IMG/VR virus record: IMGVR_UViG_3300031111_000002
Coordinates: 3,535-67,534 of that record
Length of the DNA stretch: 64,000 bases
Source of the DNA: a virus
Reading direction: 5' to 3' (one strand)
The number at the start of each line of letters is the position of its first letter. The first letter of the stretch is position 1. Shown here piece after piece: positions 9-63,887 of the stretch. Made by a program: the position numbers and the translations under genes. The notes below the pieces were generated by a model that worked only from the letters and a program-made list of their open reading frames with translations, did not search any database and had not been told where the DNA came from.

Positions 9-572
9 TTGCACGAGATCTGCCCATTGAATGCGCAGCCAATTGACAATGTGCGCTGGGTTCCGAAGGAAAAGGTCGAGCCGAACGATTACAACCCGAA
101 CAGTGTTGCTCAGAAGGAGATGGGGCTTCTTTATCACAGCATCAAACAGGATGGTTACACGCAGCCGATTGTCACGATCTACGACGAGGCGCGAGATAAA
201 TACGTGATCGTAGACGGATTCCACCGGTATTACGTTGGTACGACGTGCGAGGACATCACTCAGGACAATAAAGGAATGCTCCCGGTGGTTGTTATCAAGA
301 AGGATATCAACGAGCGCATGGCGGCGACTGTGAGACATAACAGGGCACGTGGTGAGCACAGCATTGCTGGCATGAGTAATCTGATATTCAACATGCTTGA
401 AAACGGGTGGTCTGATGCCGAGATCTGCAATCACATCGGTCTGGAGCCGGAAGAACTTCTGAAGCTGAAGCATATCACTGGATTCTCCAAACTGTTTGAG
501 AACGTGGAATATCAGAAGGCTTGGGAGACAAAGCGGATGATCCGTTTGCGAATGGAGCACAAGGATGAATGA
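9..572 (+). CDS. IbrB-like ParB/Srx-domain protein (probably 5'-truncated by window edge)
   Basis: PNDYNPN, SIKQDGYTQPIV, IVDGFHRY and TVRHNRARGEH motifs typical of the IbrB/ParB N-domain. Confidence 0.85.
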   Translation: MHEICPLNAQPIDNVRWVPKEKVEPNDYNPNSVAQKEMGLLYHSIKQDGYTQPIVTIYDEARDKYVIVDGFHRYYVGTTCEDITQDNKGMLPVVVIKKDINERMAATVRHNRARGEHSIAGMSNLIFNMLENGWSDAEICNHIGLEPEELLKLKHITGFSKLFENVEYQKAWETKRMIRLRMEHKDE

Positions 573-1164
573 ATCAGCCGTAATCCCGGTCTTATCGGAA
601 GACGGTGAAAACTTCGCAATGGTAGCAGGTGCCGGGGACGTTATCCGTCGTTTTCTCAACACGACTGGGTTTGGGATAAACACTATCAAGGATTGCGACG
701 TACCAGCGTTCATCGCTATGTGCGAAGCATGGGGTGAGTACCGTAGGTGCTGCAATCTTCTTGAAGGTAATCCCGGGGTATACAAAACGACAACTGGCCA
801 ATGGAGAACTCACCCTATCGCCGCTGCTCGAGATCGCGCATGGAACCGGTACTACGTTCTTGCGGGAAACTTCGGATTTCTTCCATCAGCCCGTGGTGAA
901 ACGAATGCGAAACAGGAACAACCTGAAGACGATTCAATGGAAACAGTCATTGAAGTCGGTTTGGAATTCTTGCCAGAATACATACAACATGAATACGCGG
1001 ACTTGATCGAAAGCCCAGTTTCCATTACAAAAGGGGTGATACAGGACTGGATACGAAGGGCGTCTTTTCATTTTAATAAAGATGGAGCGACGAAGGCGAT
1101 GGTCAAAGCGCGAGGTACCCGGTCTTCCGCAATAGCAAGGGCTATATTGCTTTTCGGGGAATAA
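565..1164 (+). CDS. P27-family terminase small subunit-like protein
   Basis: THPIAAARD...FGFLPSAR resembles the P27 TerS signature (HP...GLTP.SR); lies directly upstream of portal. Confidence 0.7.
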   Translation: MNESAVIPVLSEDGENFAMVAGAGDVIRRFLNTTGFGINTIKDCDVPAFIAMCEAWGEYRRCCNLLEGNPGVYKTTTGQWRTHPIAAARDRAWNRYYVLAGNFGFLPSARGETNAKQEQPEDDSMETVIEVGLEFLPEYIQHEYADLIESPVSITKGVIQDWIRRASFHFNKDGATKAMVKARGTRSSAIARAILLFGE

Positions 1165-1186
1165 CGTTTGACTTACGGAGCAAAAT

Positions 1187-3502
1187 ATGTTAAAAAAAAT
1201 ACTGAATATGGGTTTTTCTTTTTCCTCTCTAGGAAAGGGTCGAGAAGAACCATCGACGCTTGTAGCTGATCTTGACGAGGCTTTTGCAAACATCTCGCCA
1301 GAGGACGCTGCTTTCGTTGTGCAAGAAATAGCCAGAATGCGAGCGAACGCATTGAAGGCCGGAACCCCGGTGACGGCTACACTCGATTCCATAACAAAAC
1401 AATATGAACGGGACGATAAACTCACTTTCCCAAAAATCGAGAAAATGATAAATGATGAACAGATACACTCAGCCCGAAGGACAATCGAACTTGGGCTGAC
1501 TGCTTATCCGTGGGGTTATCTGAATCCAGACCCGGCTATTCAAGAGTTCGTCATGGATGCTTCCAACGCTTGTCATGGTGGAAGGGCCGGGTTGATCCGA
1601 GAGCTTCTTTACGCATTGGATTACGGGTTCACAGTTTCCGAGCGCGAGATGGCCTACAACACGGTTCACAAAAAGATCTTCATTCCACGCATAAAAACCT
1701 TGCGTCATGCAAATGTAACCTTCAACACGAACGCTAAGGGGACTGATATCGACTGGTTTGGCCAGCCGGTTCATTATGAACAGCCGGACGGTTCCGAAAC
1801 TGATGTCGATGCTAATCGCCTGATGATATGGACTTATCAAGCCAAGTATGGAGATCCGTATGGGATTCCTGCACTTAAACCGTGCTACCGCGCTTGGTTC
1901 ATAAAGAAGGCGTTGCTCATGGCTTGGGCTACTTCGTGCGAACGACATGGCGCTCCATGGGTGACTGCAGAATCTCCGGACGGAAACGAAACCTTCATGC
2001 GTCGAGTGTTGAACGCTTTGAGGTCGATCACTACCGACTCCGTTGTGGTTACTCCACCCGGCGTGAAGACAAACATTACACAGCCGAACTTTTCATCTGA
2101 AACGTTCAGTAGTTATGTTGCGTACCTCGATCGTCTGATCTTCCGTGTTTATACCATGCCGTCATTGGTTCTTGGTGAGGGCGAAGGTAAGGGCTCGTAT
2201 GCACTTGGCAAAACTCATTTCGATCTGTTCCTTTGGAACCAGCTTGACCTTCGCAACCAGCTTGCGGAAGTTCTGTTGAAGCAATGGGTCGCACCGCTTG
2301 TATTCACGAACTTCGGCGACAAAGCGCCACTTGGAAAAGTGGTTTGGCCGAGGATGAAGGGTGAATCTCTTGCCGGTTTGCTCGAGGTTTATGCCCGGTT
2401 TGCAAACAAGGGCCTGTTGACTTACCCGGATTTGGAAGTCACGAACCTGTTCAGGGAAGCGTTGGATCTTTCACCGATGACCGAGGAACGTTTGCCGGAA
2501 GCACTTGAAAAGTATTATGAATATCTACGGTTGCAAGCGGAAGCATCTGCAATTACCAGCGAACCTAAATCCCGGGCTGAAGAAGCCCGGGAATCTCGCC
2601 CAGTTTCGCTTTCAATTGCTGAACCCCTGGAATCGTTTGCAGTTACTCCACAGGAAGTGGAGAAAACAATGGACTCCGATACTGATCGGATGTCTGCCAG
2701 AATCCGGAAGGTTTACGATTCTGTCGAGTTGAACCGGCCTACCCCTGCACAGATCCGCGACATAAAATCGTATGAGAACAATCTGGATCCGGATGAAGCG
2801 GCAGTTGAAACACTTGCATACAAGGTTGCCGTCCGTGCATTCCCGGCTAGGCGGTTTGAAGCGTCGTTCCAAGCCGCTATAGAGGCGCCTATGGGATTTG
2901 CGGCGACTCATGGGGTCCGTGATGCGTCGAAGCAAATAACCGATCTCAAACGCAAGAAGAAGGATGAAAACCAGGATGCTCCGGCGATTGACATTTCTGA
3001 TATCGACGTTTACCCGGAAGACGCTGTTGAGGCATATACCGTCCAATACGCGGAGTTCAAAACCAAGCAAGAGATTTACGCCATGTCCAATACAATCAAA
3101 AGGTATATTGGAGATCTTGGCACTGGTGAGAAGACATTTGATATAACCAGCTTCATGGAGACGCTGAACAAATCATTGGATCTCAGCAAATCGAGATCCG
3201 AAACCATCGCGCAAACTGAAGTTACCCGGGGTTATAACCTTGGCCGGCTCCATCGCTACAACGATGATCCTGACTTCATTAGTGGATACAGGTTCAGTGC
3301 AATCCTAGACAAAAGGACTACGCCATACTGCCGTGACATTGACGGCAAACAAATCCAGCGTAGCGAAATGCGTGAGGAACGACTTCCACCTTTCCACTTT
3401 TCTTGCAGAACGATAATCGAACCGGTGACTGAGTTTTCGGAGCGGCAGGACTTTGATGTCGTTCCGGAACCCCCGGAAGATTTCCGAGGCGAGGTACAAT
3501 GA
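1187..3502 (+). CDS. Portal protein (DUF935/Mu gp29-like) fused to C-terminal gpF/SPP1 gp7-like head morphogenesis domain
   Basis: GDPYGIPALKPCYRAW, ERHGAP and GSYALGKTH portal motifs; C-terminal ETIAQTE..D.RTTPYC..PPFHFSCRT gpF motif. Confidence 0.88.
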   Translation: MLKKILNMGFSFSSLGKGREEPSTLVADLDEAFANISPEDAAFVVQEIARMRANALKAGTPVTATLDSITKQYERDDKLTFPKIEKMINDEQIHSARRTIELGLTAYPWGYLNPDPAIQEFVMDASNACHGGRAGLIRELLYALDYGFTVSEREMAYNTVHKKIFIPRIKTLRHANVTFNTNAKGTDIDWFGQPVHYEQPDGSETDVDANRLMIWTYQAKYGDPYGIPALKPCYRAWFIKKALLMAWATSCERHGAPWVTAESPDGNETFMRRVLNALRSITTDSVVVTPPGVKTNITQPNFSSETFSSYVAYLDRLIFRVYTMPSLVLGEGEGKGSYALGKTHFDLFLWNQLDLRNQLAEVLLKQWVAPLVFTNFGDKAPLGKVVWPRMKGESLAGLLEVYARFANKGLLTYPDLEVTNLFREALDLSPMTEERLPEALEKYYEYLRLQAEASAITSEPKSRAEEARESRPVSLSIAEPLESFAVTPQEVEKTMDSDTDRMSARIRKVYDSVELNRPTPAQIRDIKSYENNLDPDEAAVETLAYKVAVRAFPARRFEASFQAAIEAPMGFAATHGVRDASKQITDLKRKKKDENQDAPAIDISDIDVYPEDAVEAYTVQYAEFKTKQEIYAMSNTIKRYIGDLGTGEKTFDITSFMETLNKSLDLSKSRSETIAQTEVTRGYNLGRLHRYNDDPDFISGYRFSAILDKRTTPYCRDIDGKQIQRSEMREERLPPFHFSCRTIIEPVTEFSERQDFDVVPEPPEDFRGEVQ

Positions 3503-11536: not shown

Positions 11537-12045
11537 AAATTACCCTGATTGGAATGGATCGAACCAGAGAGAATATCGGGCGCAGAGCACCGAGACACTT
11601 TCGAGATTTGACCGTTCCGCTTAAAAGGGTTGAAGCATATATGATCGGCGAGTCGATAAGTAAAAATTTCAGGGAGGGCGGTCGTCCAAAACGGTGGGCG
11701 GCTTTGTCAGGTGCGACGGCAACGATCAACCCAAGGCGGCAAGGGGGGAAACCTCTACAGGATACTGGCGCTCACATCAAGAATCGTATTACTGGCAAAA
11801 TTGAGGGTGGCTACCGTCTCGTAATAGGTGCTGGTGGAAAGATCCCTACCATTCAACAAAAGGGCGCGAAGATCAGGGTTACGCCAGCTATGAGAAAGTT
11901 TCTTGCGGCAAAGGGGATATATCTGAGCGCGACGACAAAGGAAATCAAGATCCCTGGTCGCCAGTTCATTCTCTTTCAGCCTGAGGATATCGGCGCAATA
12001 AACAAGATATTCCGCGATTGGTCAAGAAATTACAAGGGTGTGTGA
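11533..12045 (+). CDS. Virion morphogenesis/tail completion protein (Mu gpG/P2 gpS-like)
   Basis: NFREGGRPKRWAALS.AT, LQDTG and IPGRQFI motifs. Confidence 0.8.
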   Translation: MKITLIGMDRTRENIGRRAPRHFRDLTVPLKRVEAYMIGESISKNFREGGRPKRWAALSGATATINPRRQGGKPLQDTGAHIKNRITGKIEGGYRLVIGAGGKIPTIQQKGAKIRVTPAMRKFLAAKGIYLSATTKEIKIPGRQFILFQPEDIGAINKIFRDWSRNYKGV

Positions 12046-30836: not shown

Positions 30837-31556
30837 TCAAGTCAACCTTTTGTATTTCCGGGGACTTTCCTTAGTGACTATCTGATCTCTTGTGAATCCG
30901 GTTTGATCCATCACTTGCTCTATAGCGTCCATTGCATTTAGGTTTTCCTTGCTGCCATGTATTAAATAAACCTTCTTCACTGTGGTCTTATCAATCGAAT
31001 TGAGAAACCGTATGCAGCCCCGTACACTCATATGAGTCGTGAACAAACGCGAGCGATATGGACAGTCGGTTATCAGATCTTCCCTGTAATTGCATTCGAT
31101 CATTATGTGAGTAAGACCGTCGAACTTCGCGCGGATCAACGCGGTGTCGCTTGCATACAAGATCCGGTCGCCTTTCGGAGTGCCAATGAGAAAGCACAGT
31201 GGTTGCGTCCCGTCGTGAACAGCATCGAATGGAACGACTGCCCACCGTTTCTTGATTACGACTGTCTTAGACGGTTCTACATGCACGATACGATGACCTG
31301 TCAAACCAGCGTCGTCTGCCGTACCTTTTGACATGTATAGATCGACTCCGCGTTTGGCCAGTTCTTTAGCGCCTACAATGTGATCTCCATGAGCATGTGA
31401 GATTAAAACTCCATCAAGCGATGCTACTCGATGATCCAACGCTTTGTAGATCTGACGGGCGGGAAGACCGGCCTCAATTAGAAGCCGACCTTCGCCGTTT
31501 GTCAAAAGGTAACAATTACCTTCAGAACCAGTTGAGATGATCCTGATGTCTACCAT
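30837..31556 (-). CDS. MBL-fold metallo-hydrolase (YycJ/WalJ-like nuclease)
   Basis: TGSEGN, SHAHGDH, HD, SDT, ECNY and HMS motifs. Confidence 0.9.
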   Translation of the reverse strand: MVDIRIISTGSEGNCYLLTNGEGRLLIEAGLPARQIYKALDHRVASLDGVLISHAHGDHIVGAKELAKRGVDLYMSKGTADDAGLTGHRIVHVEPSKTVVIKKRWAVVPFDAVHDGTQPLCFLIGTPKGDRILYASDTALIRAKFDGLTHIMIECNYREDLITDCPYRSRLFTTHMSVRGCIRFLNSIDKTTVKKVYLIHGSKENLNAMDAIEQVMDQTGFTRDQIVTKESPRKYKRLT

Positions 31557-32512
31557 TCAGGTTCGTCCGGGTATTCGTCGTCGTCCGTTTCCGTCATTGG
31601 TTCAGGAGCCGGATCGGGATCGGGATCGGGATCGGGAGCAGGAGCTGGAGCGGGAGCAGGGGCAGGAGAAGTGTCCGGCTGTTGAGTGTCTTCTGGAACA
31701 GGACCAAATTCAGCGTCAACAACTTCGCCCGTTGGTTCGACTCCGTCCGGAAGTCCCGGGTAAGGTTCTGTTGGTGCGAACCCCGGTGCTTCGATTCCAA
31801 TGTGAGGCGGTTCTTCCTGCATGTAGTCCTCGTTGAAATCGTCACCTATTCCGCGTTCCATGTTGATCGCCATTTCCATTTCAGTGGAGATGACACCGTA
31901 CTTCTGTATCAGTCGTTTGAGAACGGTCTTCATTCCCATGTCGTTGATATGGCTTTTCCACATAGGGTTGCGAGGCGCATACTTAGCGCCATGAGCAATC
32001 GCTTCGTCGATAGTCATTTTGATTGTTTTCGTGAAGCCGTTGATAAGGACAAAGTGAGCGAAGTATCCAGCGACCGCATCACTTTTTCTTTCGCCGTTCA
32101 TTTCAATTTCTCCGGTAAGCCGGCATTCGTGCGAAAGTTCGCCATCGTAGTACTTGTCCACGTTGAGATATTTGTAGGCGCCTGTGTTCATCGCCAAACG
32201 CCACCAGCCCTTCCAGCCGATGACAAGCGTAGGAACGTTCGCGAACGGGAGAATCGAAGCATGTCCGAGTGCTTTGCTGATTGTCAATCCCAGCGAAGCG
32301 GCTTTAAGTGCTTCTACGACAACCAGTTTCGGGTTGCAATTCCGGAGTTTCGTGTCCCCAGAATACAACTCGATCAAGGACGTTTTGAACGATTCAGATT
32401 TGTTGACACCGAGCGTGGCCTGTAAGCGTTCTCCGATGACAGGATCGCTTACCGCTTCGGTGATTCTTTCCATTGGTGATTGTTTTGCTTCCACAAGATC
32501 ATTGTTTGCCAT
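31550..32512 (-). CDS. recT: RecT-family ssDNA annealing protein
   Basis: IGWKGW.RLAM.TG.Y and M..KTVLKRLI.KYG; Pro/Asp-repeat acidic tail. Confidence 0.88.
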   Translation of the reverse strand: MANNDLVEAKQSPMERITEAVSDPVIGERLQATLGVNKSESFKTSLIELYSGDTKLRNCNPKLVVVEALKAASLGLTISKALGHASILPFANVPTLVIGWKGWWRLAMNTGAYKYLNVDKYYDGELSHECRLTGEIEMNGERKSDAVAGYFAHFVLINGFTKTIKMTIDEAIAHGAKYAPRNPMWKSHINDMGMKTVLKRLIQKYGVISTEMEMAINMERGIGDDFNEDYMQEEPPHIGIEAPGFAPTEPYPGLPDGVEPTGEVVDAEFGPVPEDTQQPDTSPAPAPAPAPAPDPDPDPDPAPEPMTETDDDEYPDEPEW

Positions 32513-35175: not shown

Positions 35176-35337
35176 TTAGATTGAACAACGATGAACGATC
35201 TCGTCGTCGATTTTGACAACCAGATCCCTGTGTTCAAAGTCACCGCAAAACTGAATGTCAAGTTCAAATTCGATCTCGTCCGATTCAAAGAGATCGACGA
35301 GTGCTTCTTTAACGAGAGATTTGAAGGTCTTATCCAT
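35176..35337 (-). CDS. Small acidic hypothetical protein (MDKTFKS...)
   Basis: TGA-C-ATG coupling; preferred over the track ORF 35160-35342. Confidence 0.55.
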   Translation of the reverse strand: MDKTFKSLVKEALVDLFESDEIEFELDIQFCGDFEHRDLVVKIDDEIVHRCSI

Positions 35338-35338
35338 G

Positions 35339-35461
35339 TCAATTTCCTTTCATAATTTCAGCGTCAACAACAGATTGTGCATCAGAGGTAGACATTCCTT
35401 CTGATTCAAGTTCAAGTACCCGTGCGTTATATTTTTTCCAGTCGATGTTTGCGAAGTTCAT
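35339..35461 (-). CDS. Small hypothetical protein (MNFANIDW...)
   Basis: AAGGGGA RBS and CTGACATG start. Confidence 0.55.
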   Translation of the reverse strand: MNFANIDWKKYNARVLELESEGMSTSDAQSVVDAEIMKGN

Positions 35462-35480
35462 GTCAGTCCCCTTTCACACG

Positions 35481-35798
35481 TTATGAAACCATTTCGTTCA
35501 AGGCGCAAATGTCAATTTCAGCAATCGTAGTAACGTTTTTCTCACCGTCGCGGACGAAGTCAATTCTTACCACAAGGTGATTCCGGTATTCAGAAATGAT
35601 TTCAGTGATTTCAATCGGGTATACCCGGCCAGTTTCAGATGAGATTGTGAGTTCAGATCCGGGGAACATTTCGTCAGCGTATTCAGTCTTGCCGTCGATG
35701 CGTCCAGATTTCTTCCAGCCAATCGGTTTGATCGGGCAGTCGTACCAGATCAAGTCAAAGGTGTTCAGTTTGGTCCCGTTGTTGAGTGTGTAGTTCAT
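35481..35798 (-). CDS. Hypothetical protein
   Basis: First gene after the conserved early promoter/leader. Confidence 0.7.
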   Translation of the reverse strand: MNYTLNNGTKLNTFDLIWYDCPIKPIGWKKSGRIDGKTEYADEMFPGSELTISSETGRVYPIEITEIISEYRNHLVVRIDFVRDGEKNVTTIAEIDICALNEMVS

Positions 35799-35893
35799 AT
35801 TCAGCCCTCCGGTTTTGTTTTGTTTTTTCGTTCGTTAATTTAACTATAGCATCAAATGGAAAAAAGGTCAAGAATTTTTTTCTACTTTTTTTT
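35799..35893 (-). promoter_or_regulatory. Conserved early promoter plus A-rich leader (copy 3)
   Basis: AAAAAGTAGAAAAAAATTCTTGACC-17-TATAGT..AACGAACGAAAAAACAAAACAAAACCGGAGG. Confidence 0.8.
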
Positions 35894-45850: not shown

Positions 45851-46230
45851 TGTTTCCCCTTTCGCGGTCGTCCGCCGCATCGTTTTCTGTCATTCAAGCA
45901 AGTGTCGCAAGGACAGCACCCGGGCTTCAAGAGTTTGTTCAAAAGTTCTGCCGGGTTCATCTCACATCGAGGCGTGAACCCACGGTCTTCCTGAGGCGAT
46001 AGTTCGTCCACCGGTTCTGGATCCACTTTGATCGGAATAGGTTGAAACATATTGTCCTGACATGTCTGACATAATCCAGAAATTTTGTACTCCCTTAGAC
46101 TGCATTCGTCCCGGAAGGTTTCGCCTTCCATGTCCTTCGTGCAGATTGGGCATTGTCCTTTATCTCTTAGCGCTACCATCCGTTTGATTTCGGGATCTTG
46201 TATGAGGTCAACTGGTCTTTTCATATTCAT
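45847..46230 (-). CDS. Hypothetical Zn-binding protein
   Basis: CPIC..E..ISGLCQTCQD. Confidence 0.65.
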   Translation of the reverse strand: MNMKRPVDLIQDPEIKRMVALRDKGQCPICTKDMEGETFRDECSLREYKISGLCQTCQDNMFQPIPIKVDPEPVDELSPQEDRGFTPRCEMNPAELLNKLLKPGCCPCDTCLNDRKRCGGRPRKGKQ

Positions 46231-49845: not shown

Positions 49846-49922
49846 TGGTGGGCCTTGTCAGGATTGAACTGACGACCGCCCGGTTATGAGCCGGGTGCTC
49901 TGACCAGCTGAGCTAAAGGCCC
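49846..49922 (-). tRNA. tRNA with CAT anticodon, most likely tRNA-Ile2 (lysidine type)
   Basis: GGGCCTTTAGCTCAGCTGG..CCCGG CTCATAA CCGGG..GTTCAATCC..AGGCCCACCA; C4-G69 and C5-G68 as in Ile2 tRNAs; encoded CCA. Confidence 0.9.
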
Positions 49923-56699: not shown

Positions 56700-56954
56700 T
56701 TAGTGATGATGCACGAACACGAAGTAAATGACGTATATCCAACCGAGGAATCCATGAATGATGCACCAGAATATAGAATGGTTGGTGTGATAAGACAGGA
56801 TCATAGCAAGTATCTTAAACATGGACATTGATCCGATCCATTCGCCAATGATCCTAGTATTTTCAGATGACTTGGTTTCGGTATGTACAGTCGGTTTCGA
56901 TTCGTGCCTGGGAGGCCTGTTGTCAGAATGATTGGTAGCAGATTGGGTAGACAT
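56700..56954 (-). CDS. Small membrane protein
   Basis: LA..LS...N.SI.W.IIHG..GW.YVIY. Confidence 0.6.
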   Translation of the reverse strand: MSTQSATNHSDNRPPRHESKPTVHTETKSSENTRIIGEWIGSMSMFKILAMILSYHTNHSIFWCIIHGFLGWIYVIYFVFVHHH

Positions 56955-57171
56955 ATCAGCCCTCCACGGCTTCTCAGGGATCTTGCGTCCCTTCGGTGTT
57001 ATTGGTTGTCGTCGGTTTCAGATTTGTTGCGGACAGGCCTGATTTCGTCGTCCTCAGTCACCGTATGACCGGGAACAAAACACAAGGCCTTACCATTCCG
57101 GCTGTACGTTTCCACCAGCACGCCAGCGCCAGTGTCGTAGACCGAAGTAGTTTCATTCAGTTTGTTCCACT

Positions 57172-57491: not shown

Positions 57492-57539
57492 CAATGTCGT
57501 TAAACTTTTTTTCATAGACCACAGACCTGGAAGGATGAA

Positions 57540-57952
57540 TAGTGACGCAAGTGACATTAGTGACGCAAATTCCAAATCCTGTTTGACCTTTTTTGATTAG
57601 TGACGTTAGTGACGCAAGTGACACAAATTTCAGATCCTTATATGGTTTTTGTAAAACGTCAAAATCGACACTACGTCACCTATGTCACCTATGTCACTCG
57701 CTATGTCACTCTGAAAAACCCTGCCAATAAAACCTTTTGACTGTTTAGTGACGTTAGTGACATAAATCCCCCATTAAAGCTACATGAACAATTTTATTGA
57801 GTGATATGGTATACATATTGTTACTTTTACGTGTAAGGTGGTAATTAATAGGAAACTTACGTCACTTGTGTCACTCGACCCTTTGATTTCCTTGTTATAG
57901 TTGATTTTTTGTTAGTGACGTGTCGATTTTGTCTATGTCACCCTACGTCACT
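57540..57952. repeat. Iteron-like GTGAC/GTCAC array, putative replication origin
   Basis: About 9 GTGAC and 8 GTCAC copies, mostly at 9-bp period in oppositely oriented clusters, around an AT-rich core. Confidence 0.75.
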
Positions 57953-58857: not shown

Positions 58858-58953
58858 ATAAAAAAGTATAAAAAAAGTCTTGACCATTCGGGCATTATGG
58901 GCGATAATGTAGATATGAACGGAAAAACAAAACAAAACAAACCGGAGGAAACT
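58858..58953 (+). promoter_or_regulatory. Conserved early promoter plus A-rich leader (copy 1)
   Basis: AAAAAGTATAAAAAAAGTCTTGACC-17-GATAAT..GAACGGAAAAACAAAACAAAACAAACCGGAGG. Confidence 0.8.
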
Positions 58954-59211
58954 ATGACTACCGATCACATCAACGAACTGAACAACATCGAACGCTCACT
59001 GACTGAAATTGCTGACATGCTCAACGGAATTTACGTGACTGACGGCGTGTCTGAACATTCTGACTTCATCGCCGAGGTTCATGTCGTGGCTATCACTTCC
59101 GACTGTGAACTCCATGATCTTTACTTCAACGTTCACAAAAGCGGACTGTCCACTTTCATGGACGCGATCGACAACAGTGACGACATCCACTTCGCCTGTG
59201 AACTGGTCTAA
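58954..59211 (+). CDS. Small early hypothetical protein
   Basis: GGAGG RBS after the promoter. Confidence 0.7.
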   Translation: MTTDHINELNNIERSLTEIADMLNGIYVTDGVSEHSDFIAEVHVVAITSDCELHDLYFNVHKSGLSTFMDAIDNSDDIHFACELV

Positions 59212-59222
59212 GGATGACTGAC

Positions 59223-59462
59223 ATGACTACCAACTTCTACGATCCGTTTGCCAAAGCTCGTCTGAACAATGACAGGGTCTGCGCCCTGTTTTCCGGGAAG
59301 ACAATCAAGATTCGTGGCCGATCTGTCAATATGAAAGACAACGGCAACGGCTGGGATATCTTCGTTGACGGCTTTCTGGAAAAGTCCATCCCATATCTCG
59401 ACTCTACTGGCGAGGCTACTGACTTCGTTCGCAACATGACTTCTGCCCAACTGGAGGACTGA
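59223..59462 (+). CDS. Small early hypothetical protein
   Basis: CTGACATG start; 3' end repeated at 61484-61557. Confidence 0.7.
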   Translation: MTTNFYDPFAKARLNNDRVCALFSGKTIKIRGRSVNMKDNGNGWDIFVDGFLEKSIPYLDSTGEATDFVRNMTSAQLED

Positions 59463-59463
59463 C

Positions 59464-60051
59464 ATGAAACTCACCAAGAAATCGCTGAAACAACACCAGA
59501 CCAGAATCGCTGCAATACGAACGGCAAGGGGTGTCTACCGAATCGAAACTTGCTTCAACCGGTATATGGGCAAGAACTTCTACACGCCTTACCTGAAACG
59601 CGGCAAGCGGCACGTGCAACTCGGCCTCACGGCTGAATACACGCTCGACACTCTCGAGAAGGCCGGCCAGCGGATCAAGGAACATATGAAACAGAATCCT
59701 CCCGAGTCCTACCTGCCGAAAGTTGGGATGGGCGCTACGCTGCACCTGTGGTCTGACAAAGAACCATTCTTCATCGTGGAGGTTTCTTCCAATCTCAAAC
59801 GGATCAAGGTTCAATCTGCGAAAGCCGAACTGGTAAAGGGCCCGGGCGATTGCATCCTCGGCGGATTCTCTGCCATCTTCACAAACCAATCTCAACAGGA
59901 ATGGAAAGTGACTCCTGATCCGGAAGGCAGGATCGCTGAATACTCGCTGAGGAAGTCTGGACGTTGGATCCGGACTGGATGCCAAGACACTGGCGGCGCT
60001 TGTTTCCTGACCATCGGCTATGCCTACAAGTTCTACGACTACAATTTCTAA
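59464..60051 (+). CDS. Conserved phage hypothetical protein
   Basis: VGMGAT...WSD..P...GY...YD..F pattern; GGAGGA-CTGACATG start. Confidence 0.75.
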   Translation: MKLTKKSLKQHQTRIAAIRTARGVYRIETCFNRYMGKNFYTPYLKRGKRHVQLGLTAEYTLDTLEKAGQRIKEHMKQNPPESYLPKVGMGATLHLWSDKEPFFIVEVSSNLKRIKVQSAKAELVKGPGDCILGGFSAIFTNQSQQEWKVTPDPEGRIAEYSLRKSGRWIRTGCQDTGGACFLTIGYAYKFYDYNF

Positions 60052-60061
60052 GGGGTCTGAC

Positions 60062-60319
60062 ATGTATATCTTTCAAACGCTGAATGATGGAACCGAGGAC
60101 AGGTCTTCTAAGGACGCTGCCGCGATTATCGGCCGCTACGACGAGGGCTTCGTACACAGGTTCACTGACCACCAGATTGCCATAAGCCATCTGGAAACAG
60201 TCCTTCGCCGAGCGGATTGCTTGGCCTATTCGGATCGCGTCCGGCTTGAAGCCGCTTTGGACAAACTCAACAAGATCGTCGTCGCGGAAAACTTCCGTAA
60301 GACCTGCAGGAGAATCTGA
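60062..60319 (+). CDS. Small early hypothetical protein
   Basis: AGGGGT-CTGACATG start. Confidence 0.65.
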   Translation: MYIFQTLNDGTEDRSSKDAAAIIGRYDEGFVHRFTDHQIAISHLETVLRRADCLAYSDRVRLEAALDKLNKIVVAENFRKTCRRI

Positions 60320-60320
60320 C

Positions 60321-60590
60321 ATGAACTTCCTCGCCAAACCTACCTGCCATTCCATCAAACGGTTCCACCGATACTCGTCGCTCGTTGACAAGGGTCTGTC
60401 ACCTGCGAACGCAATGCGGTTGGCATTGGGGTTCGGCATGCTCCATTGGTCGCTGTGTATGCTTGACTCCGTGATCCCTAACCGGCAACAGTCCAAGCTG
60501 TTTGTTGAATATGGGCTTGAGAAGATCCTTTCGGATCTGTGTGCAGAAAACTCAAAGGCAAATCCACTTGCCAATATGAAGGAGATCTGA
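60321..60590 (+). CDS. Small early hypothetical protein
   Basis: AGGAGAAT-CTGACATG start. Confidence 0.65.
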   Translation: MNFLAKPTCHSIKRFHRYSSLVDKGLSPANAMRLALGFGMLHWSLCMLDSVIPNRQQSKLFVEYGLEKILSDLCAENSKANPLANMKEI

Positions 60591-60591
60591 C

Positions 60592-60807
60592 ATGAAGTAC
60601 ACTCAACATAACAGCTTTGAATACGGCAAAGAATTGGCACAGGAGATCTTGGAAGAAGTTGAAGTCAACCACGGAGTCAATAGGGCTTGCACCGAGTGTA
60701 GGCACATGTTGAAGTTACTTCGTGATCCATCATCATTTGACAGTTCTAAACCATTCGTGAAAGGGCTTATTGCTGCGCGAGAAGAATACTTGAAATTTCA
60801 TTCTTGA
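60592..60807 (+). CDS. Small early hypothetical protein
   Basis: AAGGAGAT-CTGACATG start. Confidence 0.65.
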   Translation: MKYTQHNSFEYGKELAQEILEEVEVNHGVNRACTECRHMLKLLRDPSSFDSSKPFVKGLIAAREEYLKFHS

Positions 60808-60884
60808 GGTCTATTGGTACACCAGTCAAAAATTATTTTTACCCTCAAAACCCGCATGAGTGTTGAATGTTAGGGTAGTGCTCT

Positions 60885-60977
60885 GAAAAAAGTATAAAAA
60901 TGTTCTTGACCTTTTAGACAGAACAGGCTATACTTTAATTAACGAACGAAAAAAACAACAAACCAAAGGAGCCAAAC
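60885..60977 (+). promoter_or_regulatory. Conserved early promoter plus A-rich leader (copy 2)
   Basis: AAAAAGTATAAAAATGTTCTTGACC-17-TATACT..AACGAACGAAAAAAACAACAAACCAAAGGAG. Confidence 0.8.
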
Positions 60978-61196
60978 ATGGACAACTACGAACTCATTGC
61001 AACTCTGGAAGAAGCACAGGAAAAAATGATGGAAGCCCTTGAACTGATGGGTGAGGTCTACGCCGAAACCGGGAACGAAACTGCTAAGACTTATCTGATC
61101 GACCATCTCACAACTCTTACTTCCAACAACCATGGATTCATGTCTCGCGACTACAATGTTGACAATTGGATCGAATCACTTCGGGAAGAGGCCTGA
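60978..61196 (+). CDS. Small acidic early protein
   Basis: AAGGAG RBS after the promoter. Confidence 0.7.
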   Translation: MDNYELIATLEEAQEKMMEALELMGEVYAETGNETAKTYLIDHLTTLTSNNHGFMSRDYNVDNWIESLREEA

Positions 61197-61197
61197 C

Positions 61198-61455
61198 ATG
61201 GATATGACAATCACGATTGAACACAAGCCAGGTATCACGCTCATTCACCTTGAATCTACTTGTTACATTGCAAACTTCGTTATCACTGGAGGTGCGATTC
61301 CGTTCGGTTATCTCGAGGCCTGGGTTGACAACCGGAAGAAACTTCATCCCGGTATCGTCGTACAGGATCTCCATTACCTCAAGAAGAAACTTGAAGAAGA
61401 CGGTCTTACAATCATGCGCGGGAATGACGCGAAAGACGCTTGGGGGATCTCATGA
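61198..61455 (+). CDS. Small early hypothetical protein
   Basis: GAGGC-CTGACATG start. Confidence 0.6.
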   Translation: MDMTITIEHKPGITLIHLESTCYIANFVITGGAIPFGYLEAWVDNRKKLHPGIVVQDLHYLKKKLEEDGLTIMRGNDAKDAWGIS

Positions 61456-61483
61456 CTGTTTATCGCAAACCTATGAACGTTGA

Positions 61484-61557
61484 ATCTCGACTCTACTGGC
61501 GAGGTCATTGACTTCATTCGTGACATGGCTTCAGCAAAATTGGAGGGCTGACATGAA
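61484..61557 (+). repeat. Diverged direct repeat of 59395-59467 (3' remnant of a paralogous gene plus junction)
   Basis: ATCTCGACTCTACTGGCGAGG identical; LDSTGEVIDFIRDMASAKLEG versus LDSTGEATDFVRNMTSAQLED. Confidence 0.85.
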
Positions 61558-61873
61558 TCCGATGACTTACAACCGAACTCGCGAAATGGCTGAGAAGCTT
61601 GTGATGGGATTGTTCAAAACTAAGAAGGGCGCTCGTGAACAGAAGCGCCTGTGCCCGGACTGGTGGGAAGCACAAATCGAACACTACATGGGGAAAGATC
61701 CTGACGTGCTCGAAGGAATGGCCGAAGCCCCTGATACCGTTCCCCCGTTTCTCTACAAGCAGGTTCGCTCGGTGCATGTCGCATACTATCGTTCTCGTGG
61801 CTGGTCTGCATACGAAAAGGGCGCGACTTGGACACTGATGGAAAAGCCGAATCCGCGTTACAAGGAATCTTGA
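61553..61873 (+). CDS. Small early hypothetical protein
   Basis: GGAGGG-CTGACATG start. Confidence 0.65.
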   Translation: MNPMTYNRTREMAEKLVMGLFKTKKGAREQKRLCPDWWEAQIEHYMGKDPDVLEGMAEAPDTVPPFLYKQVRSVHVAYYRSRGWSAYEKGATWTLMEKPNPRYKES

Positions 61874-61886
61874 AAGGAGTCCCCAT

Positions 61887-62081
61887 ATGAAACCCGATCC
61901 CTCAAATCCTATCGTGTCTGGCGCTGTCCTCGTGCGCTGCTATGGCTACAAAGAACTGGATCCCCGCTGCCTTCTTTGCGAACATTCGCATCTCCATGCT
62001 CGCAGTCCTGAATGTAACAAGATTTGCGACGTTGCCGATGGCAGGGCTTGTGTTATCGAAGGAGTGCTCGATGTCGCGTAG
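61887..62081 (+). CDS. Small Cys-rich hypothetical protein
   Basis: AAGGAG RBS. Confidence 0.5.
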   Translation: MKPDPSNPIVSGAVLVRCYGYKELDPRCLLCEHSHLHARSPECNKICDVADGRACVIEGVLDVA

Positions 62082-62340
62082 TCAAACCATAATCTTCATC
62101 ACTCGACCAATCGGAGCGAAAACACCGGGAGGCATCCGCTTCAATTGCATAGGACTGCAAACCCAGATCGACATCTTTCCGACTGGCAAGGATGACCTGT
62201 GCGACGTTCGCTACAATCGCTTTGGACAATCACACAGGTTGGGCTTTATCAATCGCAAGGATGCCATACTCAGTGCGGCTGACATTCTTGAAAGAGAACA
62301 TTCACTGGAAACCGGGAGGGGATATGAGATTCTCAATTGA
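62071..62340 (+). CDS. Small hypothetical protein
   Basis: AAGGAG RBS. Confidence 0.55.
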   Translation: MSRSQTIIFITRPIGAKTPGGIRFNCIGLQTQIDIFPTGKDDLCDVRYNRFGQSHRLGFINRKDAILSAADILEREHSLETGRGYEILN

Positions 62341-62506
62341 AGACCTGATGGCTGCAGATTCCGATTATGCTGGATTCTGTATCAACTGTGGAACGTGGCA
62401 TGACGGAGTGGAGCCCGATGCCCGAGGATATACTTGTGAGGAATGCAAAACACCTACCGTGTTTGGCGCTATGGAAATCGTTATCATGGGCCTTGCGAAT
62501 TTCTGA
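62324..62506 (+). CDS. Zn-ribbon protein
   Basis: C..CG...VEPDA..Y.CE.C...V.G; GGAGG RBS. Confidence 0.7.
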   Translation: MRFSIEDLMAADSDYAGFCINCGTWHDGVEPDARGYTCEECKTPTVFGAMEIVIMGLANF

Positions 62507-62507
62507 T

Positions 62508-62822
62508 ATGATTAAGTGCTCCGATTTGACAAAGCCCCTTCGGATACGCAAAACTGGAACCAACATTGAGGTCAATGAAGATTCCACCGGAGGGCAGACA
62601 AGGGGTGCTATGTTTGATCCAGCTGAAATGATCCGCAGGACGCATTACAATTTTTTGCATCCACGTGAGCAGGAAGTACTTCGGGATTGTCCACCGGAAG
62701 GATCACTCCAGAGATCTGGATTCCTTGCGGTCAAAACGGATGGCTGCGCCTACGTCGGTATCGACCGCCGAGATGGTACGCTGTCCAACTGGAAACTGGT
62801 ATACGGCATACCTTTGGTTTGA
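62508..62822 (+). CDS. Hypothetical protein
   Basis: CTGATATG junction start. Confidence 0.5.
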   Translation: MIKCSDLTKPLRIRKTGTNIEVNEDSTGGQTRGAMFDPAEMIRRTHYNFLHPREQEVLRDCPPEGSLQRSGFLAVKTDGCAYVGIDRRDGTLSNWKLVYGIPLV

Positions 62823-63239: not shown

Positions 63240-63887
63240 ATGAAAGTAGAAATGATTTCTTTGGACCGGATCAAACCATACGACAAGAATCCCCGGGTCA
63301 ATGACGAAGCGGTATCTAAGGTGGCAGAATCAATTGAGCAGTTTGGATTCCAGCAACCTATCGTGGTGAACCTTGACGGAGTGATTATCGTGGGCCACAC
63401 GCGCTTCAGAGCTGCAAAGCTATTGAAGTTGAAAGAGGTTCCAGTATGCGTAGCCGATTTGCCAGAAGACAAAGAGAGGGCTTATCGAATTGCGGACAAC
63501 AAAACGAATGAGTTTGCGCGATGGGACTACAATCTGTTGAAGGGCGAATTGAAGGATCTGAACGCGGTTGATCTTGATTTCGAGCTTGGAGATCTTGGTA
63601 TTGATTTCGGCGAGTTGAGTTACACTCCACCGGCTCCATCCGTACCTGGACTCGGTTCAGGTATCAACACTCCACCGGCAGCCAATTTCACTATGGAAGA
63701 AGACGAGCCGGACAGGTCACACGCGAACACGTTACCGGAGATTGATACTCGAGAAGTGACGGACAAGAACATTGAACGTGCGGAAAATAGAATGGGCGTA
63801 GGTGAGGCGCGAATGGATCGCATTATGATCGAGGCAATATGCCCTGAATGCGGAGCGGAATTCAACGTTTCGCCACAAAAGGGGTGA
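63240..63887 (+). CDS. ParB-N domain protein with C-terminal Zn-ribbon (DNA-modification-associated type)
   Basis: PY..NPR, SI..FGF.QPIVV, GHTR..AA, YRIADNK and CPECG.EF motifs. Confidence 0.88.
   Translation: MKVEMISLDRIKPYDKNPRVNDEAVSKVAESIEQFGFQQPIVVNLDGVIIVGHTRFRAAKLLKLKEVPVCVADLPEDKERAYRIADNKTNEFARWDYNLLKGELKDLNAVDLDFELGDLGIDFGELSYTPPAPSVPGLGSGINTPPAANFTMEEDEPDRSHANTLPEIDTREVTDKNIERAENRMGVGEARMDRIMIEAICPECGAEFNVSPQKG

Follow-up and report, generated by a model that had tools for sequence, protein, structure and literature searches.

A repeated stop-start octamer at the joints between small early genes of a marine-sediment phage

The virus record IMGVR_UViG_3300031111_000002 of IMG/VR is a single contig of 67,534 bp. 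Its bases 3535-67534, a stretch of 64,000 nucleotides (nt) that we call the window and whose numbering is used below, exhibit two operons of small early genes in which one gene after another is entered through the same octamer, CTGACATG, reading C-TGA-C-ATG and ending with the start codon of the downstream gene. Seven consecutive start copies occupy the region 59218-61555 of the plus strand (59218, 59459, 60057, 60316, 60587, 61193 and 61548), and an eighth lies 24 kb from this array on the minus strand (35459-35466). The pattern is real and very non-random; it is striking in degree, and of a known kind of phenomenon. An initial annotation of this DNA had placed all eight copies correctly. Its listing of the region holds for the seven array starts and overlooked a ninth copy there, inside the first gene (59012).

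Operon A, on the plus strand like the whole array, follows an early-type promoter with an A-rich upstream element (58863-58908; TTGACC-17-GATAAT, at 58880) and comprises the genes gA1 to gA6 (58954-60807). Its first gene, gA1 (58954-59211), encodes an 85-aa protein without relatives (an ORFan) and ends at a TAA; the copy of CTGACATG at 59012 is an in-frame Met codon inside it, without a Shine-Dalgarno sequence (SD). The first junction (59218-59225) reads TAA GGA TGA C-TGA-C-ATG, with a TGAC tandem, and starts gA2 (59223-59462), a 79-aa ORFan. The TGA of the second junction (59459-59466) is the gA2 stop, 1 nt ahead of the ATG of gA3 (59464-60051; 195 aa, with a TAA end), a gene with only weak matches to PHROG families of unknown function. 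At the third junction (60057-60064) the sequence TAA GGG GTC TGA is in frame and is followed by C ATG, the start of gA4 (60062-60319), an 85-aa ORFan. The TGAs of the fourth (60316-60323) and fifth (60587-60594) junctions are the stops of gA4 and of the 89-aa ORFan gA5 (60321-60590), and the operon closes with gA6, an ORFan of 71 aa (60592-60807). All five internal junctions of operon A thus carry the octamer. The G+C content at third codon positions is 0.62-0.65 for gA1-gA5 (58954-60590) and 0.44 for gA6 (60592-60807), with a genome mean of 0.53 +/- 0.065, a mild compositional heterogeneity within the operon.

Operon B has a promoter of the same type (60889-60934; TTGACC-17-TATACT, at 60906) and begins with gB1 (60978-61196), a 72-aa ORFan whose TGA stop belongs to the sixth junction (61193-61200). 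The gene entered there, gB2 (61198-61455), is an 85-aa ORFan and is followed by a remnant of 23 codons (61480-61551) homologous to the C-terminus of gA2 (70% identity over 20 aa). The open reading frame (ORF) of this remnant is closed by the TGA of the seventh junction (61548-61555), from which gB3 starts (61553-61873; 106-aa ORFan). Junctions beyond gB3 are of other types: a 13-nt gap, overlaps of 11 and 17 nt, and the variant octamer CTGATATG at the gB6 stop and gB7 start (62503-62510). In neither operon A nor operon B does the first gene, behind the leader, have the motif, which in both is confined to internal gene-gene junctions.

Promoters A and B are part of an 82-nt repeated module (repeat D2), the second copy of which spans 60886-60967. 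The A-rich upstream part of this module has four copies in the window, at 58863(+), 60889(+), 35867(-) and 34851(-), and the promoter pattern AAAGTAKAAAAA..TTGAC likewise has four, three of which drive octamer-bearing operons. The third promoter of the class (35867-35888, minus strand) drives operon C, which contains the eighth octamer and two variants. One variant, CTGAATATG (35796-35804, -), lies in the leader of the first operon C gene, with no upstream ORF; the eighth start octamer has its TGA in frame, six codons behind the upstream TAA; and the next gene pair meets in a TGACATG stop-N-start junction (35335-35341, -). All eight start octamers are therefore found within three operons of one promoter class, which bears out the earlier suggestion that the motif is specific to early-type operons. 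The promoter modules stand at operon heads only, the octamer is absent from all four of them, and the octamer joints contain neither promoter nor stem-loop. The variant CTGATATG recurs at 56952(-), where the sequence GGAGGGCTGATATG (56952-56959, -) lies at a gene start 44 nt past the upstream stop, and GTGACATG occurs at 12042. All five variants named in the initial annotation, at 62503, 56952, 35335, 35796 and 12042, are thus present as claimed.

The window contains 12 copies of CTGACATG on both strands, against an expectation of 2.28 +/- 1.23 from 100 dinucleotide-preserving shuffles, none of which reached 12. The complete 67,534-bp genome contains 13. Gene starts were called from ORFs, codon usage and SD with a simple program, a few calls being corrected by eye. 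When the genome-wide count is set against these starts, as the initial annotation had proposed, eight of the 13 copies place their ATG at an SD-preceded gene start, all eight in the sense orientation. The remaining five (59012, 15924, 46057, 52507 and genome position 1584) do not, and roughly equal the number expected by chance. The pentamer CTGAC occupies positions -5 to -1 of 8 out of 106 called starts, the runner-up pentamer being found at three. These starts are concentrated in the plus-strand block at 58-64 kb (7 of 15), with 1 of 57 on the minus strand and 0 of 34 among structural and packaging genes (Fisher p = 2e-6); the motif is hence not equally common at structural gene starts.

Each joint consists of an SD, 1-3 nt and C-TGA-C-ATG. 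The SD, separate for each joint, is 6-8 nt from the ATG and varies in sequence and register. In four of the seven array joints (59459, 60316, 60587 and 61193) the upstream ORF ends at a UGA located between the SD and the AUG of the next gene, leaving a 1-nt gap; a stop within a few nucleotides of a start is thus observed in these four, and also for the decayed ORF at 61548. At three joints the working stop is an earlier TAA, separated from the next gene by a gap of 10, 11 or 19 nt. The initial annotation had concluded that TGA is not needed as a stop at these joints. The TAA codons are real (59209, 60049 and 35481-35483), and the argument is weakened by the position of the TGA: at 60057 it is in frame three codons behind the TAA, at 35459 the TAA and five codons precede an in-frame TGA six codons on, and at 59218 an in-frame TGA abuts the octamer. 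Together with the remnant at 61548, these in-frame or abutting TGAs mean that all exceptions are derivable from ordinary stop-N-start joints. The TAA-first joints can be derived by an early nonsense change, a scenario that is not statistically compelling (P of at least two in three being in frame, about 0.26). Genome-wide there are 20 ATGA joints, 9 with a 1-nt overlap and 12 with a 1-nt gap.

The SD zones of the eight joints are slightly more alike than those of random starts (p = 0.04), whereas the sequences further out are not. Seven of the eight predicted RNA folds have z >= -0.12 and one has z = -1.83, so that the joints appear unstructured; we found no RNA structure shared among the eight, and no inverted repeats or hairpins at them. 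Inspection by eye ruled out CTGACA as a -35-like element, there being no -10 downstream, and an extended pairing with the 3' end of 16S rRNA was likewise dropped by eye, as its register varies with the position of the SD.

The array proteins (71-195 aa) exhibit no Pfam match above threshold. As the initial annotation had supposed, they appear to be unrelated ORFans: the only relationship detectable among them is that of gA2 with the remnant, and paralogy beyond this pair was ruled out, the similarity of gB2 proper to gA2 being not significant (p = 0.73). The gA2/remnant pair is part of a DNA repeat, D3 (59395-59468 and 61484-61557; 74 nt, 84% identity), in which the 3' end of a gene and the joint behind it are retained ahead of a different gene. 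The remnant shares its reading frame with gB2, from which two in-frame TGA codons (61453 and 61474) separate it. Since similarity further upstream is not significant, gB2 and the remnant are either one longer gene broken in place or the two sides of a recombination scar.

As a control we used 80 IMG/VR loci picked via an unrelated protein (1.08 Mb), and took as a cluster any identical -5 to -1 pentamers that stand, within 3 kb, before ATGs with an SD. The maximum per locus was three members in one locus, two in 12 and one in 67, compared to seven in this genome. Two further sets were ascertained on a joint sequence: 117 loci, among the matches listed, on GGAGGNCTGACATGAA, and 115 on a control pattern with TTGATATG. 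At least two SD-preceded CTGACATG joints were found in 13 of the 117 loci among the matches listed, with a maximum of four, mostly at adjacent small genes; some loci are near-duplicates, so that the 13 represent about 11 independent cases. In the TTGATATG set, 4 of 115 loci had two or more of its own joints, again with a maximum of four. The cross rates were low: 1/115 and 0/80 for CTGACATG, and 3/117 (among the matches listed) and 1/80 for TTGATATG. Over about 3.1 Mb of other viral loci no more than four such junctions were seen per locus among the matches listed, this phage being the most extreme. Repeating one joint in neighbouring small genes is thus a real, minority habit of phage genomes, independent of the octamer concerned, and the repetition of junction octamers looks like a general, little-described trait.

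Three IMG/VR contigs unrelated to this phage (L073:295-3393, L088:2683-5130 and L065:656-3108) exhibit islands of 26-29 nt that are 100% identical and coincide exactly with SD-ATG joints, the genes on either side being diverged or mosaic. Compared with the other two, L073 has in addition an insertion of about 840 bp that comprises three genes, each after GGAGGTGC(CC/GG)AATGA, and both of whose ends are within a few bases of start codons. These contigs serve as illustration only, because the flanking genes are in some cases not unrelated but diverged alleles.

The phage itself has about 127 bases repeated at both contig ends and is classed in its record as a virus with direct terminal repeats and an estimated completeness of 100%. 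Its GC content is 47%. The array sequence is identical in two marine-sediment metagenome runs, compared as contigs, which drop rare variants; no circles or alternative joints were seen in these contigs, and no RNA run is listed that contains the stretch. A blastn search of the array against 50,697 phage records gave no match, and gA3 and the portal protein searched in IMG/VR gave no relatives. Against 5.8 billion proteins gA3 matched only itself and one sequence at 33% identity; the portal protein search likewise returned itself and one match at 24% identity (E = 4e-4). A 19-nt word of D3 had three chance matches in metagenome contigs, without other homology, and the promoter pattern had one chance match in IMG/VR.

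Encoded proteins include a Mu-type portal fused to a Mu F domain, a tail-tube protein, a primase/helicase, an SNF2 helicase, a ParB-like protein, a PAPS-reductase/DUF3440 protein and methyltransferase-like ORFs. The RecT annealase named in the initial annotation is indeed present, as a RecT-like gene at 31550-32512(-) (phrog_148, E = 4e-44). The portal/Mu F-like fusion (1187-3502; 771 aa) is essentially without sequence relatives. Just upstream of the packaging genes (genome positions 289-3460 and window 63240-63887) lie the ParB-like protein, three methyltransferase-like ORFs, two of which are paralogues with 44% identity, and the PAPS-reductase/DUF3440 protein, a group that looks like a DNA-modification module. 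A tRNA gene at 49846-49922(-), with anticodon CAT, encodes its own CCA end. The first pair, G1-C72, is closed as judged by eye, so that the tRNA looks like an elongator of the Met or Ile2 type and not an initiator; no extended complementarity was found between it and the octamer. Small Cys-rich ORFs (CxxC...CxxC), possibly zinc ribbons, occur in the early regions at 61887-62081, 62324-62506 and about 45851-46230(-). The octamer copy at 46057 lies inside a Cys-rich ORF, which ruled out an antisense small RNA at that site. Between divergent early operons there is an iteron-like field (57536-57880) of 9-bp repeats with core GTGACR, e.g. TTAGTGACG, in direct and inverted orientation, which could be a replication origin or an operator field.

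In termination-reinitiation, a ribosome that terminates on one gene can restart immediately on the next. We tentatively favour the view that the octamer is a translational-coupling joint of this kind, which became the same throughout the array with the addition or replacement of small ORFan cassettes; we put this at somewhat below an even chance. The counts, the layout and the locality of the joints are observed; we infer the reinitiation, from what is established about this process, and the history of the array. C-UGA-C-AUG after an SD would be the invariant core of a coupling joint linking small ORFans in sigma-70-type early operons. A ribosome ending the upstream gene would restart on the next, the genes of an operon would be expressed one after another, and a dedicated trans-acting factor would be unnecessary. 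Local duplication or short-homology recombination would have added, replaced or truncated genes beside a joint already present, and the joint would have been kept because the SD and start of the downstream gene depend on it; the five identical letters would then be a genealogical mark of the growth of the array.

Several observations argue for coupling by such a joint: four of seven array joints are true stop-N-start junctions, the TGA of a fifth closes a decayed gene, and the TAA-first joints retain in-frame or abutting TGAs. Each joint has its own SD in unstructured RNA, the motif is restricted to internal junctions, and seven copies are adjacent. The repetition of joints in other viral contigs, the identity islands of the three contigs and the insertion in L073, the 3' end retained with its joint in D3, and the comparable signature in the mycobacteriophages Island3 and Brujita (PMC3029335; see below) point in the same direction. 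Coupling is reported to require overlaps or very short gaps (PMC10666635).

A number of points weigh against this interpretation. The C at -5 and the C at -1 are invariant in all eight copies, which is beyond what coupling alone explains. The flanks of the eight joints (-35 to -13 and +4 to +23) are as unlike each other as those of random gene starts (p = 0.73 and 0.13), the conservation being accordingly a sharp 8-nt island, and 8 bp is short for annealase-driven recombination. The sole duplication that can be reconstructed is D3, whose right boundary is at the octamer and whose left boundary is inside former coding sequence. The fixed crossover point proposed in the initial annotation gains no support from it, nor from a Pfam integrase or resolvase, none of which was matched in the genome. 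Variant joints exist where no upstream ORF ends (the leader at 35796, and 56952), and local copying accounts less well than co-regulation for the eighth copy, which lies 24 kb off in a separate operon of the shared promoter class. Nor is there any general preference to draw on: none of the 59 other TGA stops of the genome is in a CTGAC context, which rules out a general stop context of this genome. Of the 108 stop-N-ATG joints in the 80 control loci three have CTGAC, none of them among the 23 joints that have an SD, and in the ascertained sets it occurs at 1 of 27 and 0 of 24 non-ascertained SD-type TGA-N-ATG joints; a universal phage preference for CTGAC is thereby ruled out. Finally, the phage has no relatives in any collection searched.

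It is possible, if doubtful, that CUGAC(AUG) acts in cis as an RNA site for a trans-acting factor (a phage or host repressor, an endoribonuclease or a small RNA) that switches the early ORFans together. Its logic would be like that of the T4 RegA and RegB targets. The sharp island in unrelated flanks with its invariant non-stop positions agrees with such a site, as do the limitation to three operons with a single class of promoter, the third operon being 24 kb off, the retention of the octamer where TGA is not the working stop (59218, 60057, 61548 and 35459), the variant in a leader without an upstream ORF, and the predicted single-stranded state of the RNA. The SAS elements of mycobacteriophages, treated below, are alike in placement, orientation, ATG bias and non-structural restriction (PMC3203893). 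On the other hand, searches of the complete genome for RegB (PF10715) and RegA (PF01818) gave no match at E <= 1, no antisense seed was found, the reverse complement of the motif occurring within coding sequence only, and no Rfam family was detected besides tRNA-Met(CAT). The first genes of operons A and B, moreover, lack the motif. Both CTGACATG and another octamer are repeated within contigs of unrelated phages of 39-65% GC, which suggests a generic process rather than a CUGAC-specific factor. In a version of this idea that we likewise regard as possible and doubtful, CUGACAUG would be a minimal start-associated RNA element through which a phage or host factor switches early host-takeover ORFans, by a translation block or a cut between SD and AUG. 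It would double as a standard cassette linker: being identical at every joint, it would allow cassettes to be swapped without breaking expression.

The same bases might also have been reached at each joint independently, by point mutation, as the best SD-to-AUG spacer with an embedded UGA for the host ribosome or for release factor 2 (RF2). Fixing the SD, the spacing and the TGA leaves only three positions free, UGA-C is a weak context for termination in which the ribosome could dwell longer at the joint, and GTGAC is also frequent (at least 13) in the CTGACATG-ascertained loci among the matches listed. Such pure convergence is nonetheless unlikely, given that seven other 1-nt-gap joints outside the array use TAAt, TGAt, TGAc, TAGa, TAAa, TGAc and TAAt, that the late, highly expressed genes are without the motif (0/34), and that the unbiased viral sets exhibit no preference for CTGAC. 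We consider a DNA-level site quite improbable, whether a stoperator-like regulator site blocking early transcription or a dedicated crossover site as in integron-like cassettes: the position is locked to the ATG and not to transcription signals, none of the four promoter copies contains the octamer, the joints have no inverted repeats or hairpins, 8 bp is short for a specific DNA site, and tyrosine or serine recombinases, integrases and resolvases (PF00589, PF00239) gave no match in the genome. The single orientation of all eight start copies relative to transcription and the very short intergenic spaces, as for stoperators (PMC9283540), would suit a regulator site, and the iteron field with core GTGACR is nearby; in every copy, however, the first base of the iteron core differs from that of the octamer. 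The fusion of neighbouring ORFs into polyproteins by a +1 shift at C-UGA-C is still less probable. In the stop-N-ATG layout the following ORF is in the +1 frame, C-UGA-C has an SD directly ahead of it, and UGA-C is an RF2-type shift context, but the last sense codons (GAC, AUC, AUC, GCC and GGC) are unable to re-pair in +1, the SD is 0-1 nt from the P-site codon instead of 3 nt, and three joints have an earlier TAA. As for chance or base composition, the near-expected number of the five non-start copies is all that speaks for it, and it is practically negligible in view of the shuffles (0/100 at 12), the uneven distribution over gene blocks (p = 2e-6) and a largest control cluster of three versus seven.

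No part of a phage genome is less well understood, or changes faster, than its small early ORFans. If a fixed joint keeps inserted genes translated, or if a single factor controls them all, this would explain how such arrays grow and shuffle without loss of expression, and synthetic operons would gain a coupling element that is compact and portable. Where viral loci were chosen for one junction octamer, about 4-11% of them (among the matches listed) repeat that octamer in neighbouring genes. This suggests that junction homogenisation is an under-described feature of phage small-gene arrays, maybe more general than this phage.

Several known systems resemble the array in part. T4 RegB targets the SD itself, GGAG, and the sites of RegA show loose conservation, both proteins shutting off early translation; the likeness is a short sequence at the SD and AUG of many early genes, and the difference is that this genome has no RegA or RegB homologue. 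Integron cassettes differ by their attC sites, no attC-like inverted repeats being found at the joints and no PF00589 or PF00239 match in the genome. The PeSL cassettes of T4-type phages are units of a promoter and a stem-loop terminator, for which mini-circles were shown and modular shuffling was proposed (PMC2839356). They share with the array the repeated regulatory motifs in hyperplastic regions of small non-essential ORFans, and the array is itself punctuated by a repeated promoter module; unlike them, the octamer has neither promoter nor hairpin and cannot be counted as a PeSL. In Cluster A mycobacteriophages the immunity repressor binds to stoperators, 13-mers that also act as promoter operators and are found genome-wide in temperate phages (PMC9283540). 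Stoperators and the octamer are both asymmetric sites in short intergenic spaces, oriented with transcription. In contrast to stoperators, the octamer is in no promoter copy, no integrase was detected here, and a non-exhaustive scan of the proteins identified no cognate repressor.

Published coupling junctions have a stop and a start within a few nucleotides and an SD inside the end of the upstream gene, as here (PMC10666635, PMC6728339). Their common forms, ATGA and TGATG, are of varied sequence, whereas the array exhibits one fixed 1-nt-gap form with two extra invariant bases. The short boundary sequences at mosaic joints, described for lambdoid phages and Island3, are together with the SAS treated below the nearest known parallels, all with short identity where unrelated genes meet. 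In Island3 (gp67/gp68) and Brujita a C-terminal stretch of 18 residues and about 50 bp are shared, which was tied to the model of "short conserved boundary sequences" (PMC3029335); there, as in D3, the C-terminal residues (about 18-21) and the junction are common to otherwise unrelated neighbours. Those boundaries are about 50 bp long or gene-specific, whereas here a single 8-mer is reused at every joint.

The start-associated sequences (SAS) of Cluster K mycobacteriophages are 13 bp long (GGGATAGGAGCCC), contain the SD and lie 3-7 bp upstream of the start (PMC3203893). There are 11-19 scattered copies per genome, conserved across subclusters, half of them with extended inverted repeats; their function is unknown, and a co-regulating factor has long been suspected (PMC3203893). 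The octamer, only 8 nt long, includes ATG and TGA and leaves out the SD, so that it has no equivalent of the 13-bp SD-containing consensus, and seven of its eight copies are consecutive. Like SAS, it is a short asymmetric repeat near starts in one orientation, with a strong ATG bias and a location in the non-structural half of the genome ahead of unrelated gene families, and in SAS, too, the upstream stop codon is sometimes inside the repeat (PMC3203893). If the octamer is indeed an element read by a factor, it would be a second, independent SAS-like example, from an unrelated marine phage and with a much smaller motif.

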